Shown here piece after piece: positions 5,341 to 50,087 of a stretch of DNA of 64,000 nucleotides. How positions within the stretch are numbered: position 1 is the first letter of the stretch; every line of letters begins with the position of its first letter. This DNA is from Patescibacteria group bacterium (GTDB lineage Bacteria > Patescibacteriota > Patescibacteriia > UM-FILTER-42-10): NCBI GenBank assembly GCA_041664365.1, contig JBAYKW010000002.1:85961-149960 (forward strand), read 5' to 3'. Under the pieces are notes generated by a model. The model searched no databases. It had not been told where the DNA came from and was given only the letters and a program-made list of their open reading frames with translations. Both the position numbers and the translations under genes were made by a program.

Positions 5341-6207
5341 ATGATCAAAAAAATCAGTTTAATAACACTATCCATCGGGGTAGTGTTATTTTTGGCAATT
5401 TATATTTTTGGTAAAAATAATTCAGAGCTGAAAATATATTTTCTGGATGTCGGTCAAGGGGATGCCATCCTGATTCGTACGCCGGAAAATCAGGATATTT
5501 TAATTGATGGCGGGCCGGGCAATATGGTTGTAAATGAAATAGGCAAATTCTTGCCGTTTTATGACCGTGATATTGAACTGATGATTCTGACGCACGCTCA
5601 TTCCGATCATGTTTCCGGGCTAGTGGAAGTGCTTAAACGCTACGAGGTCGATCAAGTGCTTTTTTCCGGGGACGTTATACATAATGCGCCAGATTATTTA
5701 GCATGGCTTGATATTATTTTAGAAAAATCAATTCCGCTAAAAGTTGCAACCTGTTGTGAAACATATAAATTGGGTGATCAGCTGGAATTACAAATCCTTT
5801 ATCCCTTCGAAGATTATTCCGGGAAAGAGCCTGAGGATCTTAATGAAAGCTCTGTTGTATCCCGTCTGGTGTATAAAGATAGAGAGTTTCTGTTTACTGG
5901 TGATGCGCCGATTGAGGTGGAGGAAAAGCTGATTGAAAAAATGATACATATTGAATCGGATATTTTGAAAGTTGGGCATCATGGCAGTAAATATTCCTCC
6001 GGTGAACTATTTTTGGATGCTGTAAGTCCTGACTATGCGGTTATTCAATCCGGGGAGGGAAATAGTTTCGGTCATCCGCATTTTAAATCAATTAATAATC
6101 TGCAAAAACTTAATATAGAAATAATTCGAAATGACCAGTGCGGGACAATTACTATGGAGACCGATGGTATTGATCTGGAACTAAGCAGCGAAAGGTGTGA
6201 TTTATGA
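5341..6207 (+). CDS. Membrane-anchored metallo-beta-lactamase domain protein. Corresponds to the C-terminal MBL domain of ComEC, here encoded as a separate gene.
   Basis: N-terminal TM helix, then YFLDVGQGDAILI (the typical start of the ComEC beta-lactamase domain). ILTHAHSDHVSGL is an HxHxDH zinc motif. KVGHHGS. Confidence 0.75.
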   Translation: MIKKISLITLSIGVVLFLAIYIFGKNNSELKIYFLDVGQGDAILIRTPENQDILIDGGPGNMVVNEIGKFLPFYDRDIELMILTHAHSDHVSGLVEVLKRYEVDQVLFSGDVIHNAPDYLAWLDIILEKSIPLKVATCCETYKLGDQLELQILYPFEDYSGKEPEDLNESSVVSRLVYKDREFLFTGDAPIEVEEKLIEKMIHIESDILKVGHHGSKYSSGELFLDAVSPDYAVIQSGEGNSFGHPHFKSINNLQKLNIEIIRNDQCGTITMETDGIDLELSSERCDL

Positions 6208-6719
6208 AGCGTTATAATATTCCAGGGTATGTGCATTTTGTGACCACGAGAACATATAACAGTGTCCCGTATTTTGGTGATGATGTTTGCTGTCAGATTT
6301 TGTTGGATGTTATCAATCGATTGAGATATGAATTAAAATTCCATCTGGTTGGGTTCGTATTTATTCCGAATCATGTGCATTTATTGCTAAAACTTTGGAT
6401 AGGTTCGAATTTATTCGAACCGGAAGCGAATGAATTCGCTTCTACCCGTGGTAATATATCTTACGTTGTTCAACGAATAAAAGGGACAAGCGCCAGAGAA
6501 ATAGATAGGTATCTTAAAAGAACAGGGAATGTTTGGCAAAAAAGCTTTTACGACTTCAACATCTATTCAGAAAGAAAATTTATCGAAAAACTGGACTATA
6601 TTCATAACAACCCGGTCAAGCACGGGTATGTGCAAAATCCGGAGGATTGGAAATATTCTTCATGGCATAATTACTACCAGGACGATGATTCAATAATGAT
6701 AATTGATAAAATTGATTGA
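6204..6719 (+). CDS. IS200/IS605-family Y1 (HUH) transposase of the REP-associated tyrosine transposase (RAYT, YafM-like) type.
   Basis: FIPNHVHLLL is the HuH motif. YIHNNPVKHGYV...W.YSSW is the conserved RAYT C-terminal catalytic-Tyr region. About 170 aa. Overlaps the upstream gene by 4 nt. REP-like hairpins follow it. Confidence 0.75.
   Translation: MKRYNIPGYVHFVTTRTYNSVPYFGDDVCCQILLDVINRLRYELKFHLVGFVFIPNHVHLLLKLWIGSNLFEPEANEFASTRGNISYVVQRIKGTSAREIDRYLKRTGNVWQKSFYDFNIYSERKFIEKLDYIHNNPVKHGYVQNPEDWKYSSWHNYYQDDDSIMIIDKID
6396..6445. repeat. Copy of the twin-hairpin miniature repeat, lying inside the RAYT ORF in frame. Encodes WIGSNLFEPEANEFAST.
   Basis: ttggataggttcgaatttattcgaaccggaagcgaatgaattcgcttct. 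Hairpin 1 is ggttcgaat-tt-attcgaacc and hairpin 2 is aagcgaat-ga-attcgctt. Near-identical to 6843-6900 and shares hairpin 2 with 49000 and 49955. Confidence 0.6.
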
Positions 6720-6737
6720 TTGTGATTATTGGTTAGC

Positions 6738-6757
6738 TCGGGTGACGTCACCCGAGA
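6738..6757. repeat. Perfect 20-bp palindrome ctcgggTGACGTCAcccgag (REP-like hairpin) immediately downstream of the RAYT gene.
   Basis: Self-complementary by inspection. Shares its TGACGTCA core with the palindromes at 28076-28107 and 28161-28178. Confidence 0.7.
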
Positions 6758-6842
6758 TACCCGAGGTCAGATTCATTCAAATCTTGATTATCATTGGATA
6801 GGTTCGAATTAATCAATTCTAGAATAATTATTACAGTATAGT

Positions 6843-6900
6843 TTTTGGATAGGTTCGAATTTATTCGAACCGGGCGCGAATGAATTTGCTTTTACCCAAA
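6843..6900. repeat. Intergenic copy of the twin-hairpin miniature repeat. A partial copy lies at 6793-6815.
   Basis: tttttggataggttcgaatttattcgaaccgggcgcgaatgaatttgcttttaccc is about 85% identical to 6396-6445. ttggataggttcgaat occurs three times between 6396 and 6860. Confidence 0.65.
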
Positions 6901-6917
6901 TAGGATATCATTCGCTA

Positions 6918-6961
6918 TAAAATAAATAAAAAACACCCGTCCCATGTTAGTCTGGGACGGG
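6918..6961 (-). terminator. Rho-independent terminator for the minus-strand GC-rich gene.
   Basis: Hairpin cccgtccca-tgttagtc-tgggacggg at 6936-6961. The flanking plus-strand A-run aaataaataaaaaac is a U-tract on the minus strand. Confidence 0.6.
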
Positions 6962-7007
6962 CCACGAATGGAAGGCTCAAGCCTTCAACGTGTCCGACGC
7001 GTGTCGG

Positions 7008-7535
7008 TTACGCGCGGATCACGCCGCTCGTGTTCGCCGTCTTGGCGTCCTGCGTCTTGGTCGTCTTCTTGGCCACCACGGCCGACTTGGGGACTTCGAG
7101 ACTGCTGGTGATGATCACGTGCTCGGCCAGGAGAATTCCACTGGCATCACGAGTTCTCCCCTCGAAGGCGCTGTGGTCATCTCGACTACTGCTCGTCGTC
7201 GCTTCGTGCTTCGTCAGTGACGCATAGTCCGTCGTCTGGAGGACCAGCGTCGAGTTCGCCTCGATGATCGCGGTCGCGCTGATGAACATGAGCACATCGG
7301 CGTTTTCCGCATACTTCGCATCCGCGATCGCCGTCGTCTTGTTGTTGACGTGCGCGATCGTGCCGTCGTTCTGCGCAAAGGCCCAAGCGAGGGTCGTTGC
7401 GCTGCTCAGCTCGTCGGTCCGCGGGGCCGTAGCATACGCGTTGCTCGCGCTCGCGTTGGCCGCCGCCGTCATGATCACGAGAGTCGCCATGATCGTCACG
7501 AAGACCGCGAATCGCGGCCGATGTAGTCGTCTCAT
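7008..7535 (-). CDS. Secreted protein of unknown function, encoded in a GC-rich islet.
   Basis: Start MRRLHRPRFAVFVTIMATLVIMTAAANASA is a signal peptide. GGAGG RBS 8 nt upstream (7544-7548). Region is about 60% GC, against an AT-rich background. Ala/Thr/Ser-rich. Confidence 0.55.
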   Translation of the reverse strand: MRRLHRPRFAVFVTIMATLVIMTAAANASASNAYATAPRTDELSSATTLAWAFAQNDGTIAHVNNKTTAIADAKYAENADVLMFISATAIIEANSTLVLQTTDYASLTKHEATTSSSRDDHSAFEGRTRDASGILLAEHVIITSSLEVPKSAVVAKKTTKTQDAKTANTSGVIRA

Positions 7536-7915
7536 GACAGTTTCCTCCATCCATGAAGGTTTTGTCGCGTCAGTGACGACAAGCTAGGATGTGCGACATT
7601 GTGATGAGCCGCGCAAACAAAAGACCTCCTTTCGGTCAGAAGTGGTAACAAGCATCCCTTTCCGAAGCTTGTTTGGTAGGTGCAATGAAATGCCCAAGGA
7701 AGGGCACTTTATTTATACCACTTGGCTAATCTTAGGTCAAATAGTTAAGATAGTAACTAGTAACAAGTAGCTAGCAATCGGACGGATAATCATTAAATCA
7801 GAATAGGTTTCCAGTTACTGATTACATGTTCCTGCTTACTAATAAATAGATTATTCTAAAATTAACATCCTATATCTCTCTATATAAAAAATGTAAAATT
7901 TGATAAAATACAAAA

Positions 7916-17220: not shown

Positions 17221-17298
17221 TGGCGGGCTCGACCGGATTCGAACCGGCGATCTTCTCCGTGACAGGGAGACGTGTTAGGCCATCTACACCACGAGCCC
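17221..17298 (-). tRNA. tRNA-Asp (anticodon GUC) with encoded CCA.
   Basis: Reverse complement GGGCTCGTGGTGTAGATGGCCTAACACGTCTCCCTGTCACGGAGAAGATCGCCGGTTCGAATCCGGTCGAGCCCGCCA folds as a cloverleaf. The 7-bp acceptor stem is GGGCTCG/CGAGCCC. Anticodon stem TCTCC/GGAGA with loop CTGTCAC. T-loop is TTCGAAT. Confidence 0.85.
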
Positions 17299-23538: not shown

Positions 23539-23563
23539 TAAAAAGCAGGGCTCAAAATAATAA

Positions 23564-23598
23564 GTAGGCGCGAATACGTATTCGCGCCTACTGTTTTT
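23564..23598 (+). terminator. Rho-independent terminator, probably bidirectional (ends the giant ORF and the minus-strand GC-rich gene).
   Basis: gtaggcgcgaat-acgt-attcgcgcctac followed by tgtttttgg. An A-run upstream serves the opposite strand. Confidence 0.65.
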
Positions 23599-23734
23599 GG
23601 TAAAGAAAAAAGGTTCCGATCATCTGCAAGTTGCCAAGACGTAATGCTTGGTATAGATGGGAACCTTTCTATGGAACGAGGGGTGGTCGAACGAGGTTCG
23701 ACCGAAAGAGCGGTGCTGCGAATCGGATTCGCAG

Positions 23735-24583
23735 CTACTCGGTGTCGTTCTCGGGGAACGTCACCGGCTGGGTGTTCGCCTTCGCATTGGCGACGAATTT
23801 CGCCGCATGCTTGGCGTTCTCTGGCGACCCATTGTACTTGGCGTACTTGAGGGCCTCCATACAGGCCGCGATATTCACGCGGCCGGCGTTTGCGGTGTTC
23901 AGCAGAATTTCGAACTTGGAATCTGCGGAGGTCTGCCAGGTCTTGATCTCGGCGATCTGGGCCTGCAGGTCGACGACCTCCTCGTTGAGGTTGCCGATGA
24001 TCTGGGCCAGTTTGACGTCAGCGTCGGCGCCGGCGTTAATCTTCTCCTCCAGGTCGGCCCGCAGGGGATTGATCGCGGCCCGCACGCGCGTGTCGATCTC
24101 GATGCGCTGCTTGGCAGCGGCGCGACGTTCGTTGACCTGGAACCACATGGAATCCAGGACTTCATCCAGGGTTGCTTTCTCGTCGAAGGTCTTGAAGCCG
24201 TACCTTTCGACCCAACGGTTGTTGAGCCAGCCCAGCTTCTCCTCTTGACTTCCGGTGGAATCGTCAGCCGCCCACTGCATGCTCTCCTCGAAGGTGAGCT
24301 TGCTGACGGCCTTGGCCCAAACGGCTTCCCGTTCGGACTGCTTCTTGGCCGCGAGCTTCCTGAGCTCGGCTCTGGCAGCTGCCTTCTGCAGGTCGAGCGT
24401 GGTCTGGGCAGTGAATACAGCCTTCAGACTGTCGGCCTGGGTGATCTTGCCGGCGGCCTGCAGCTGGAGCACTTGCTCCTGCTGTGCGGTGGTCAGTGTG
24501 ACCTCCGGCGTCGCGGCGAAGACGTTGGCGATGGACAGGGCGGCCATCAGGGTGACGGCCATGGTCAGAGTGCGGAACTTCAT
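23735..24583 (-). CDS. Secreted Ala/Gln/Glu-rich helical protein, encoded in a GC-rich islet.
   Basis: Signal peptide MKFRTLTMAVTLMAALSIANVFA. RBS gggaggaaacgaagATG. Region is roughly 60% GC. The overlapping opposite-strand ORFs are GC-driven artefacts. Confidence 0.55.
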   Translation of the reverse strand: MKFRTLTMAVTLMAALSIANVFAATPEVTLTTAQQEQVLQLQAAGKITQADSLKAVFTAQTTLDLQKAAARAELRKLAAKKQSEREAVWAKAVSKLTFEESMQWAADDSTGSQEEKLGWLNNRWVERYGFKTFDEKATLDEVLDSMWFQVNERRAAAKQRIEIDTRVRAAINPLRADLEEKINAGADADVKLAQIIGNLNEEVVDLQAQIAEIKTWQTSADSKFEILLNTANAGRVNIAACMEALKYAKYNGSPENAKHAAKFVANAKANTQPVTFPENDTE

Positions 24584-24643
24584 CTTCGTTTCCTCCCAGA
24601 GAGGGCGGTTGTCAATGGCGATCCAGGAATAGGACCGCCGCGT

Positions 24644-24958
24644 TCACTTGCCGAAGAGTCTCGAAAACAGCTTCATGATCAGTATGATGCAGATCGCCAC
24701 AACGTTACCGAAGGCCATTATTATCAGAGCTATTATAGCTGCCTCCATAAAAAATGTATAAGTTGATGGGACCGCATCTCTATCGATCACCCGAATTGTG
24801 ATCGTCATGGAATCGGCCGTGGCGACGTTGCCGGAGTTCAGGATCTGCTCTAGCTGAGCGTTGGTCAATGTGACCTCCGTGTCGGCAGAAGCGGTGACGG
24901 TGATGAACATGACGGCCATCAGGATGACGGCCATGAGAATCGTGCGGAACTTGAACAT
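24644..24958 (-). CDS. Short secreted/membrane protein; N-terminal paralog of the 23735-24583 gene.
   Basis: MFKFRTILMAVILMAVMFITVTASADTEVTLTNAQLEQ aligns with MKFRTLTMAVTLMAALSIANVFAATPEVTLTTAQQEQ. C-terminal TM helix. RBS gggaggaaaataATG. Confidence 0.5.
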   Translation of the reverse strand: MFKFRTILMAVILMAVMFITVTASADTEVTLTNAQLEQILNSGNVATADSMTITIRVIDRDAVPSTYTFFMEAAIIALIIMAFGNVVAICIILIMKLFSRLFGK

Positions 24959-25283
24959 TATTTTCCTCCCAGGGTGGGGTAGGTTGTCAAAGGCAGTGCT
25001 GGTGAATTGCCACTGCCGCGCGTCTATCGTTAAAGGCGGTTTCTCGTTGTTTGTTGGACAACTTACAAGAAAAAGGCCTTACGTCTGCATACTATAATTT
25101 GAGGTTGCAATATCCAGACGTAAGGCGATTTTTGCTAAAGATTCTCTCCTCTACCTATTCAATTGTTAACCGCGTAGTATATACCTAAATCTGCATTTTG
25201 TCAATACTTAAGAAGATAATTTTGGCTATTATTAGCTAAAATGCTTGCAATATTATTTTGTTAACATATAATGAAATGGTCAT

Positions 25284-25709: not shown

Positions 25710-25756
25710 AACAAAAACGTAGGCGCGAATTCGAATTCGCGCCTACGTTGTTTATT
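25710..25756. terminator. Bidirectional rho-independent terminator between the VanZ-like gene (+) and rplT (-).
   Basis: aacgtaggcgcgaattcgaattcgcgcctacgtt is a 14-bp stem. Flanked by an A-run and gtttattt. The stem sequence resembles the hairpin at 23564. Confidence 0.65.
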
Positions 25757-27065: not shown

Positions 27066-27454
27066 TGGTGGAGATGAGGGGCTTTTCACCCCTGTCTAGC
27101 AAGAAACCATAAAACCTTCTACAAATATAGTTTGCTCTAAGTTTAAATACTTACGTATAGAGCAAACAAAGCCGTAAGTATCGGTCTCCATTTTGGTGTC
27201 CTGATTCATCTGGAGCGCTTGAACCAGTAATCTCGATAATATGACACCCGTTATTTGCCCATCGAGCATCAGCAAAACGGATGGCAGTAGGTTTTAGGCT
27301 ACTGCGGGTGCCAAAGATAAAGATGCAAATGCAGTCTTTACTCTGGACATAAATGATTTGGCATTTATGATTGTTCCAGGATTGATAACGGAGTTCCCGG
27401 AGCTCCGATTTGCTGGTTCTATAATGAACTTACTGTCGATTTTGTAACATCCCC
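27066..27454 (-). ncRNA. ssrA: tmRNA (ssrA) candidate.
   Basis: Immediately downstream of smpB on the same strand. 5' GGGGATG pairs with 3' CATCTCC-ACCA to give a 7-bp acceptor stem with G3:U70 and a terminal CCA. ATCGACAG resembles the tmRNA UUCGACGG region. Internal tag ORF ...AFASLSLAPAVA ends in TAA. T-arm is GGGG-TGAAAAG-CCCC, a non-canonical loop. Confidence 0.6.
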
Positions 27455-48974: not shown

Positions 48975-49062
48975 GTGTCGCGTGTAGGTTCGAATTTATT
49001 CGAACGATTAAAATAAAAGCGAATGAATTCGCTTCTGCTCGGTAAAAATTGTAAGAGCAAAA
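48975..49062. repeat. Twin-hairpin miniature repeat copy (left flank of the LOG gene).
   Basis: gtaggttcgaatttattcgaac ... aaagcgaatgaattcgcttctgctcggtaaaaattgtaagagcaaaatcagaagaaataat. A 60-nt tract is near-identical to 49955-50015. Confidence 0.7.
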
Positions 49063-49139
49063 TCAGAAGAAATAATACAAACTCATTAAATATATAATTA
49101 ATCCATAGGGTTATATTCGAATTCATTTAAAATAAACAC

Positions 49140-49895
49140 ATGATAAATGAAAAATATATGAAAAGCAGAGAAGGCGAACAGCCCGAATTATTTTTTGAAC
49201 AAGATGCCGAATTAAAAGATTTAGCTCAAAGGGTTAAATATAGAGTTAGTTTATTAGGCGGTGGTAACTCTGAAGAATCTGCTAGAATTTTGGGTCATGA
49301 TTTAACTGAGAGATTTTATCCTATTCAAACGGGTGGTTATGATACAGGAGCGATGAAAGGTGGGCTAGAAGGCGCTAATCAGGCAATCAATGAAATGAGG
49401 CAAGATACACACACTAAGGAACTTTTATCTCTAGTTTATCCATACCCAAAGGGTATTACGGCTGAACGATTTGCACCTGCTTGGGTGCCAAAAGGTGAAC
49501 ACATAAAGATTGAAGTAGCTGAAGGCAATAAGGATATGTATTTGAGACTAGGGATATTAATGGAAGATTCGTCAGCAACAATTGTTTTACCAGGCGATGC
49601 GGGCACAGAACTGGAAGTATTTGCAAATTTGCATTTCGACAAAAAATTAAAACCTAAGTTTCAAGTAGAATCTAAACCGCTGATTGTCATAGGTGATTCT
49701 CATATTGAATTAATGAGAAAATTTGAAACTGTAATTAATGATAGTGATAATGTTTATATAGTACAGGATGAAACAGAGGCTCTGGAACTCGTAGACGTTT
49801 TACGAAAATTGGATAATCAATCAGATTTGGATGAAGGTGAAGTAGAGCAATTGAATGAATTTAGAATTCAGCGTCGATTAAAATTTGAAAAATAA
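49140..49895 (+). CDS. LOG/TIGR00730-family Rossmann-fold protein (cytokinin riboside 5'-monophosphate phosphoribohydrolase-like).
   Basis: TGGYDTGAMKGGLEGA and VLPGDAGTELEVF resemble the LOG GGGxxGxM and PGGxGTxEE motifs. Confidence 0.45.
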   Translation: MINEKYMKSREGEQPELFFEQDAELKDLAQRVKYRVSLLGGGNSEESARILGHDLTERFYPIQTGGYDTGAMKGGLEGANQAINEMRQDTHTKELLSLVYPYPKGITAERFAPAWVPKGEHIKIEVAEGNKDMYLRLGILMEDSSATIVLPGDAGTELEVFANLHFDKKLKPKFQVESKPLIVIGDSHIELMRKFETVINDSDNVYIVQDETEALELVDVLRKLDNQSDLDEGEVEQLNEFRIQRRLKFEK

Positions 49896-49917
49896 AATGT
49901 ATAATTAATCAATATGG

Positions 49918-50015
49918 GTAGTTTCGAATTCATTCGAAACATGTTAACAAAAAGCGAATGAATTCGCTTCTGCTCGGTAAAAATTGTAAGAGAAAAATCA
50001 GAAGAAATAATTAAA
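49918..50015. repeat. Twin-hairpin miniature repeat copy (right flank of the LOG gene), in direct orientation relative to 48975.
   Basis: gtagtttcgaattcattcgaaac ... aaagcgaatgaattcgcttctgctcggtaaaaattgtaagagaaaaatcagaagaaataat. Confidence 0.7.
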
Positions 50016-50087
50016 ATTCTAACAACGATTATCAAAAATTCAAAAAAATAATTATTAATTATACATAATAAATTTTACATTAAAACC

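Follow-up and report, generated by a model that had tools for sequence, protein, structure and literature searches.

An in-frame, GTAG-type REP dimer within a predicted RAYT gene of a Patescibacteria genome

Our analysis of a 64 kb stretch of a Patescibacteria metagenome-assembled genome (64,000 nucleotides of contig JBAYKW010000002.1, hereafter the window) concerns a gene for a REP-associated tyrosine transposase (RAYT), which carries within its reading frame a 51 nt inverted dimer of repetitive extragenic palindromic (REP) sequences. A REP dimer very probably landed in a loop of its own RAYT, an enzyme of the TnpA-REP subclass 2.4 type. A preliminary description of this DNA had called the arrangement unusual, yet in-frame REPs within tnpA-REP genes were published in 2018 as a hallmark unique to subclass 2.4 (Quentin et al. 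2018, BMC Genomics 19:475, PMC6006769), and the window therefore adds one more case to a known phenomenon. For the most part it bears out what was already known and carries a published peculiarity over to a Patescibacteria genome, the size of which is ~1 Mb (1.18 Mb for the contig of a relative); what is new is that the in-gene REP is conserved at synonymous sites and appears to exchange sequence with its neighbours.

The RAYT gene (positions 6204–6719, plus strand, 171 aa) is an intact open-reading frame (ORF), the start codon of which overlaps the stop codon of an upstream metallo-beta-lactamase-fold (MBL) gene as ATGA. The identification of a YafM-like HUH transposase from the motifs HVHLLL and YIHNNPVKHGY stands: the curated RAYT model of NCBIfam, NF047646, matched residues 2–152 (profile positions 3–146) at 112.9 bits against a cut-off of 80, the sole sequence match in the PDB was 4ER8, the Escherichia coli TnpA-REP, and the AlphaFold2 (AF2) model of the protein (confidence, pLDDT, 86.9) also found its best fold match in 4ER8 (TM 0.72). 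NCBIfam rather than Pfam was needed for placing the protein, Pfam Y1_Tnp covering residues 82–136 only because the insert interrupts the alignment, and the IS200 model reached 21.9 bits, below its cut-off of 55. The HuH motif is H57-V-H59, followed by W111-Q112 and the catalytic Y132 within YIHNNP; H57/H59, W111 and Y132-IHNNP are invariant or nearly so in the alignment of relatives (A1), and an identical protein stands in the database under the title 'MAG: transposase [Patescibacteria group bacterium]'. By motifs, profile and predicted fold we assign the ORF to the RAYTs, homologues of HUH/Y1 single-strand DNA transposases, domesticated transposases which are thought to act on hairpin repeats such as those described here.

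Only one RAYT copy occurs in the window. The gene order MBL gene, RAYT, small GC-rich ORF (minus strand) and YdjM is common to the window and to two related contigs, L001 (the 1.18 Mb contig) and L004, whilst in a third, L134, the RAYT is followed by the same REP cluster and GC-rich stretch as in the window. The RAYT proteins of these four orthologues are 76–88% identical. Outside the repeat, third codon positions diverge by 36–41% in most pairs, more than first and second positions (~11% in the window–L004 pair), which indicates purifying selection on the RAYT. The gene appears to be vertically inherited and single-copy, as RAYTs are expected to be.

The in-gene element occupies positions 6397–6447 on the plus strand and was delimited by repeat search, folding and translation. 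It spans 17 codons, starting in codon 65 and ending in codon 82 (loop W65–T81), and encodes WIGSNLFEPEANEFAST. Its layout is a GGATAG foot, a first hairpin H1 at 6402–6421 (GGTTCGAAT-TT-ATTCGAACC), a second hairpin H2 at 6423–6442 (GAAGCGAAT-GA-ATTCGCTTC) and a CTACCC foot. Folded as single-stranded DNA, both hairpins form on either strand, with −15.5 and −14.9 kcal/mol (z ~ −4.9) and none of 200 shuffles as stable. Copies of this two-hairpin element had been described downstream of the RAYT, with a near-identical one inside the ORF: the repeat pair is there, though the element lies 1–2 nt off the coordinates first given for it (6396–6445), and H2 is degenerate in the downstream copy. Positions 6394–6447 and 6844–6897 share 93% identity over 54 nt (repeat family D3), the element proper and the downstream copy at 6847–6897 being 92–93% identical at a distance of 450 nt. 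The exact 26-mer TGGATAGGTTCGAATTTATTCGAACC, the first half of the in-gene repeat, occurs twice against an expectation of 0 from 100 shuffles.

The encoded stretch had been proposed to be an insertion where relatives have a shorter linker, and comparison with the family agrees. Between HxHLL(L/I) and the ISxxxxxIKG helix the RAYT of the window has 22 aa, compared with 7 aa in 103 of 172 relatives and 6–11 aa in 148 of the 172. Excising exactly 6397–6447 keeps the frame open (...HVHLLLKLCGNISYVV...), and the AF2 confidence falls below 50 solely at residues 69–82, between the HuH strand (57–64) and the helix 85–104. The insert is present in every close orthologue (P0001–P0004 and L134) and is therefore older than their divergence. 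From these alignments we take the 17-aa stretch to be an insertion relative to the RAYT family, and the inserted DNA to be a copy of an extragenic repeat.

The repeat itself reads as an ordinary GTAG-type REP. In relatives the element has the form GGGTAG-H1-CGGA-H2-TCTACCC, with GGGTAG...CTACCC feet in L001, L004, L134 and L127, so that GTAG stands at the hairpin foot on both strands. Pairing of the 6 nt feet with one another completes a three-way junction, which in L004 has −20.1 kcal/mol (z −6.7). We therefore identify the in-gene element as an inverted dimer of GTAG-tagged REPs of the 'double foot' kind. Two further REPs in the window (repeat family D11) share the CGAAT..ATTCG core: a single-hairpin 'double foot' REP at 23563–23592, (A)GTAGGCGCGAAT-ACGT-ATTCGCGCCTAC(T), and a second at 25716–25749, AACGTAGGCGCGAATTCGAATTCGCGCCTACGTT; the former belongs to the same REP population as the in-gene element. 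The label 'REPIN' was considered and rejected, as the H1 and H2 stems differ, each folds on itself and only the 6 nt feet pair; the element works like a REP dimer and is better described by the term 'double foot'.

The preliminary description had also proposed a novel repeat family, which these features and the distribution of H1 contradict. In a scan of contigs for the H1 motif with its TAG foot, the matches listed show a multi-copy repeat in Thiopseudomonas and many Gammaproteobacteria, and no genome of the Candidate Phyla Radiation (CPR) is among them; the H1 motif is thus not lineage-specific. Among the matches listed (L005–L124), the multi-copy foot and H1 motif TAGGTTCGAATNNATTCGAAC is often paired in inverse orientation or arrayed in tandem; it was seen in Thiopseudomonas denitrificans X2, in many metagenome-assembled genomes (MAGs) of Gammaproteobacteria and likewise in MAGs of Syntrophomonadaceae and Desulfotomaculaceae; near-identical REP sequences are thus shared by distant phyla. 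H2 with its CTAC foot adjoins other GTAG hairpins in unrelated metagenomic contigs. A metagenome scan with H2 and the tail that follows it gave 11 stretches, of which five belong to two related genomes and the other six to organisms that are unrelated but have similar REPs; the 1.18 Mb relative is not among the 11.

The same site in the protein recurs as an insertion site across RAYT relatives. Inserts of 17–119 aa were found there in 22 of 172 related RAYTs, and after a second search seeded with insert-bearing proteins, which biases the sample, in 45 of 278, with lengths up to 141 aa. The insert peptides are recognisable translations of palindromes (ANEFA, ANSFA, PNEFGVT, AEDESSATR, VGENSFSP, GVGSGLSRTE), and in-gene hairpins, mostly with GTAG, GATAG or CTAC tags, were confirmed in the DNA of five contigs. 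L125 holds four hairpins with GGGTAAC/GTTACCC feet, and an extragenic copy ~2 kb off on the same contig is ~93% identical to the in-gene one; L126 holds GC-rich hairpins with an ACCCGAG motif like that at 6737–6766 of the window; L139 holds CTAC- and GTAG-tagged hairpins; L140 hairpins of which some are GGATAG-tagged; and L141 GTAG-tagged hairpins, its neighbouring genes carrying Por_Secre_tail domains. On a crude neighbour-joining tree, Fitch parsimony placed the insert-free state at the root and counted 13 or more gains or losses, a result which is indicative only. A conserved insertion target was looked for and rejected: the 5' flanks are merely T-rich or GG-adjacent, with no common tetranucleotide.

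In the explanation that we favour, the RAYT would have been inherited vertically and be of the subclass 2.4 type, its cognate repeats being GTAG-tagged REP hairpins with a CGAAT..ATTCG core. One inverted REP dimer (GGGTAG, two hairpins and CTACCC, 51 nt) would have inserted in an ancestor of this Patescibacteria lineage, into the DNA for the surface loop between the HuH beta-strand and the next helix, and would since have been translated as a disordered 17-aa loop, leaving the enzyme core intact, since 51 nt is divisible by three and the loop lies at the periphery. RAYT genes are likely to be frequent local targets, because they sit in REP clusters, and only in-frame events in permissive loops would survive. 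The in-gene copy would then stay in the REP population, kept uniform by short-tract gene conversion and/or re-copying with copies a few hundred bases downstream, whilst REP units are gained and lost around and inside such genes in relatives. The account builds on what the comparisons establish (family assignment, insertion site, repeat identity, synteny, nucleotide conservation and insertion polymorphisms) and would further imply that the REP moved through the action of the RAYT or through recombination, and that the loop is neutral in function.

At the nucleotide level the in-gene element is conserved beyond the rest of its gene. Among the four orthologues, the 51 nt are the least variable 51-nt stretch of the RAYT gene: four of their columns vary, compared with 17 on average. 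Of the 17 third codon positions within them, 0–1 differ, whereas the figure for the rest of the gene is 36–41% in the five pairs that are more distant (Fisher p 2e-4 to 8e-3, with non-independent pairs); in the closest pair, the window and L134, 19% of third positions differ elsewhere and the contrast with the 51 nt is not significant. In the window, L134 and L001, H2 of the orthologous downstream copy is decayed or altered, and the in-gene copy is better preserved than this extragenic one. The excess conservation requires either gene conversion or selection on the hairpins, between which the data do not separate.

Sequence also seems to pass between the copies. The change from GGGTAG to GGATAG, specific to the window, is found in the in-gene copy and in both copies 400–450 nt downstream, including a partial one, and is absent from the copies at 49–50 kb and from L134, L004 and L001; we read this as signs of local gene conversion between the in-gene copy and those nearby. 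Wholesale concerted evolution was rejected, since in-gene copies are closer to each other across genomes than to their own downstream copies, and therefore only short-tract conversion is supported. In L004 an extra copy, identical at 55 of 55 positions to that genome's own in-gene copy, stands beside the counterpart of a palindrome downstream of the RAYT and is found in none of the other three genomes. In two RAYT orthologues on further contigs, L140 (8590–9291) and L142 (172–894), the in-gene REP arrays are set apart by three indels that keep the frame (27, 27 and 21 nt), and one of these is a whole REP hairpin unit; the protein cores are almost identical and the shared hairpin cores identical, whilst the inter-hairpin spacers diverge faster than the enzyme core. 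The in-gene REP is thus an active member of its repeat population and not a dead insertion. As a separate observation, L127 (1–625) has an in-gene REP dimer with a 13 nt spacer and a compensated H2 stem (GAGGCG..CGCCTC), but also a GC-rich 5' end unrelated to the others and, where a Trp codon is conserved, a TGA in frame, so that its RAYT is either a pseudogene or a chimeric assembly.

Several points weigh against an ordinary REP dimer of a subclass 2.4 RAYT that landed in a neutral loop. The top-strand GTAG is mutated in the window, all three local copies having ATAG on that strand and an intact GTAG on the bottom strand. Copy number looks low for a REP family, with ~11 core hairpins in 64 kb (in five clusters, all intergenic but the two in the RAYT) and seven H2-and-tail matches in related contigs that total ~181 kb. 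RAYTs are usually flanked by REPs on both sides, but this one has none upstream: the repeats cluster downstream (6794–6897), one dimer lies inside the gene, and on the upstream side the start overlaps the preceding gene. The assignment to subclass 2.4 rests on motifs and not on the published subclass hidden Markov models (HMMs). Finally, a purely neutral loop insertion leaves the nucleotide conservation beyond coding needs unexplained.

An alternative is that the in-gene REP is kept for a function in cis, which we regard as possible, if unlikely. It could be a self-recognition or autoregulatory site at which the RAYT binds its own gene or mRNA, its hairpins could throttle translation or mRNA stability, or it could be a protected master copy which re-seeds extragenic copies. 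Its synonymous-site conservation exceeding that of the rest of the gene, its outlasting of the orthologous extragenic copy (H2 decayed or changed in the window, L134 and L001), the identity of the new L004 copy to the in-gene one, the match of the in-gene REPs of L125 to that genome's own REP type, and the conserved hairpin cores amid divergent spacers in L140 and L142 would all fit such a role. However, linkers of 11 aa or fewer in 232 of 278 related proteins show that the insert is not required for function, the 13 or more gains or losses on the rough tree also fit tolerated recurrent insertion, and the conservation is accounted for just as well by repeated gene conversion from the extragenic copies. 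A selected cis element, whether as the best-preserved master copy and/or as a site for RAYT self-sensing or self-limitation, lineage-wide or perhaps subclass 2.4-wide, would explain frozen synonymous sites whilst the orthologous extragenic copies decay, though we think it improbable. If the conservation were indeed selection, it would point to self-regulation in REP–RAYT systems.

The reverse direction, in which the 17-aa segment is native to the RAYT of this lineage and gave rise to the extragenic copies, for instance through partial duplication of the gene or copying-out, could draw on the presence of the segment in every close orthologue (P0001–P0004, L134) and on the extra extragenic copy of L004 that is identical to the in-gene one. 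However, the in-gene and downstream copies are alike over 54 nt, precisely up to the limits of the element, and no piece of the gene flanks the repeat; on the same ground we rejected the idea that the downstream copy is left over from a gene duplication. The REP architecture with GTAG feet on both strands, the extragenic, multi-copy H1 motif in unrelated phyla, the other REP types at the same codon position in other lineages and the insert-free ancestral state on the rough tree likewise argue against it. That the transposase seeded the repeat from its own coding sequence, as had been suggested, is thus the less likely direction, most relatives being without insert and other lineages having different REP types at the site; in L125, the one lineage checked for this, the in-gene copy matches a REP elsewhere in the genome. 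We consider this reading very unlikely. That the feature is a coincidental resemblance or a product of misassembly, for instance of contigs wrongly joined at a repeat, can be dismissed as extremely improbable: the sequence does come from a metagenome-assembled genome, and in one relative, L127, the 5' end looks chimeric and the frame contains a TGA, but the same in-frame arrangement recurs in assemblies made independently from distinct samples and sources (JGI 3300037046, ENA ERZ27249449 and JGI Ga0172379 contigs), the shuffle expectation is 0, the ORF is unbroken and AF2 models its core with high confidence.

Insertion of a REP dimer into the loop remains our preferred reading, and the other repeats and features of the window are set out here. 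Immediately downstream of the RAYT, the perfect 20-bp palindrome noted earlier was confirmed by reading the sequence at 6737–6756, CTCGGGTGACGTCACCCGAG, followed by ATACCCGAGG; its counterpart in L004 is divergent and adjoined by the REP dimer that the other three genomes lack, and the ACCCGAG-type motif of this region reappears inside the L126 RAYT. A partial 5' REP copy, TTGGATAGGTTCGAATTAAT, lies at 6794–6813 (plus strand; repeat search and alignment), its first 17 nt (TTGGATAGGTTCGAATT) the same as in both other local copies whilst the orthologous sites of L134 and L001 differ. It is followed by the extragenic REP dimer at 6847–6897 (plus strand; repeat search and folding), with H1 (6852–6871) intact, H2 decayed and an orthologous copy in L134, L004 and L001. 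A conserved GC-rich hairpin at 6936–6961, CCCGTCCCATGTTAGTCTGGGACGGG, between the REP cluster and a convergent GC-rich ORF, is probably a terminator, judging by its conservation and hairpin.

Further copies had been reported to flank a LOG gene: variant REP units do stand there, but the LOG label is sub-threshold. The first unit, at 48985–49084 (plus strand; families D6 and D7), consists of GTAG and H1 (48988–49005), an 11 nt spacer, H2 (49017–49034) and a shared tail. The second, at 49892–50019 (plus strand; D6 and D9), follows TGTATAATTAA and consists of GTAG and H1 (49921–49940), H2 (49952–49969) and a tail; in these units the hairpins are 11–12 nt apart and the common tail is ~50 nt long. 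The LOG-like ORF at 49140–49895 (Pfam Lysine_decarbox, 20.3 bits, below the cut-off of 27) is bracketed by a degenerate half-unit at 49085–49132 and by the unit at 49892–50019, and sits between the NiFe-hydrogenase large subunit and HypA, with REP-bearing units of ~130 nt on each side. In L135 (8950–9210) two REP-bearing units are adjacent and the LOG-like ORF is absent, which amounts to a gene presence/absence polymorphism at a REP cluster. Longer REP units (window 49892–49915 and 49085–49105; L133 and L135) are preceded by a conserved (T)GTATAATTAA or ATATAATTAA, like an extended −10 promoter element, and may carry or overlap promoters of downstream genes.

GTAG REP hairpins also border two GC-rich islands, at 6960–7600 and 23600–25000, which hold small minus-strand ORFs (7008–7550 in the first, 23735–24583 and 24644–24958 in the second) with N-termini that are hydrophobic and, by eye, signal-peptide-like. 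The ORFs of both islands have a GC content of 0.50–0.62 and a third-position GC content (GC3) of 0.70–0.84, compared with a genome GC of 42% and a GC3 of 0.35–0.44 in neighbouring genes. Pfam gave no match for them, and a search of 5.8 billion proteins with the product of 7008–7550 returned, besides itself, only the syntenic L001 ORF at 54% identity. At gathering thresholds Rfam left the repeats and islands unmatched, finding in the window a tmRNA (27066–27454, minus strand, 113 bits) and a tRNA (17224–17298, minus strand) alone.

Compared with known systems, the RAYT of the window resembles the TnpA of IS200/IS605 insertion sequences (ISs; IS608, ISDra2) in fold and catalytic motifs and probably in its recognition of hairpins in single-stranded DNA. 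IS608 and ISDra2 are however mobile, multi-copy ISs with subterminal hairpins flanking the gene, whereas this RAYT is syntenic, overlaps its upstream gene and is not a mobile unit. With the E. coli TnpA-REP and its REPs and bacterial interspersed mosaic elements (4ER8; Messing et al. 2012, PMC3479197; Ton-Hoang et al. 2012) it shares the HUH/Y1 fold (TM 0.72) and GTAG-tagged hairpin substrates; the E. coli enzyme belongs instead to subclass 2.2 (DHLH, WE, YIHYNP), and its REPs are long, bulged, present in hundreds of copies and absent from the inside of the tnpA-REP gene. In Pseudomonas fluorescens (Bertels & Rainey 2011, PMC3116915) the REPIN is likewise a unit of two inverted REPs and its RAYT is single-copy and vertically inherited, as the RAYT of the window appears to be, but the REPs of the window are two different self-complementary hairpins with a spacer of 1 to ~13 nt, which do not pair mutually save for the 6 nt feet, and their copy number is apparently low.

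In-frame REPs in other genes were described earlier, as Rickettsia palindromic elements and as intragenic GTAG/CGTC REPs (Di Nocera et al. 2013, PMC3733652). Like the element of the window, these are in-frame monomers or dimers encoding ~20–30 aa in presumed permissive loops; their host genes are unrelated (uvrA, uvrB, polymerases), whereas here the host gene is the cognate RAYT, and the supplementary files of that paper contain no transposase term. A literature search for REPs or RAYTs in Patescibacteria found nothing relevant.

The closest counterpart is subclass 2.4 of Quentin et al. (PMC6006769). Its insertions lie in the beta3/alphaC loop, after the HuH strand, and were modelled as a peripheral extension. 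Table 1 of that paper gives the motifs NH[IFV]H, WQ and YIxNNP, REPs that are 'long', 'double foot' and 'inserted in tnpAREP', and an occurrence in Cyanobacteria, Bacteroidetes and various phyla, the subclass being equivalent to RAYT group 4 of Bertels et al. 2017. The criteria for the subclass also comprise an 8-aa insertion where alphaB ends, and Calothrix AFY32102 is one of its reference sequences. The RAYT of the window matches the motif signature with NHVH (56–59), WQ (111–112) and YIHNNP (132–137). The host differs from those published in being a Patescibacteria (CPR) genome, the insert is a compact dimer of two different short hairpins, and the available part of the paper reports neither synonymous-site conservation nor local homogenisation of the in-gene REP. 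The likenesses are a variable beta3/alphaC-loop insertion made of in-frame REPs, 'double foot' REPs with 5' GT[AG]G and 3' C[TC]AC, and the lack of a long C-terminal extension, and it is by such motifs and architecture, rather than by the authors' HMMs, that we place this RAYT with the subclass 2.4 type.

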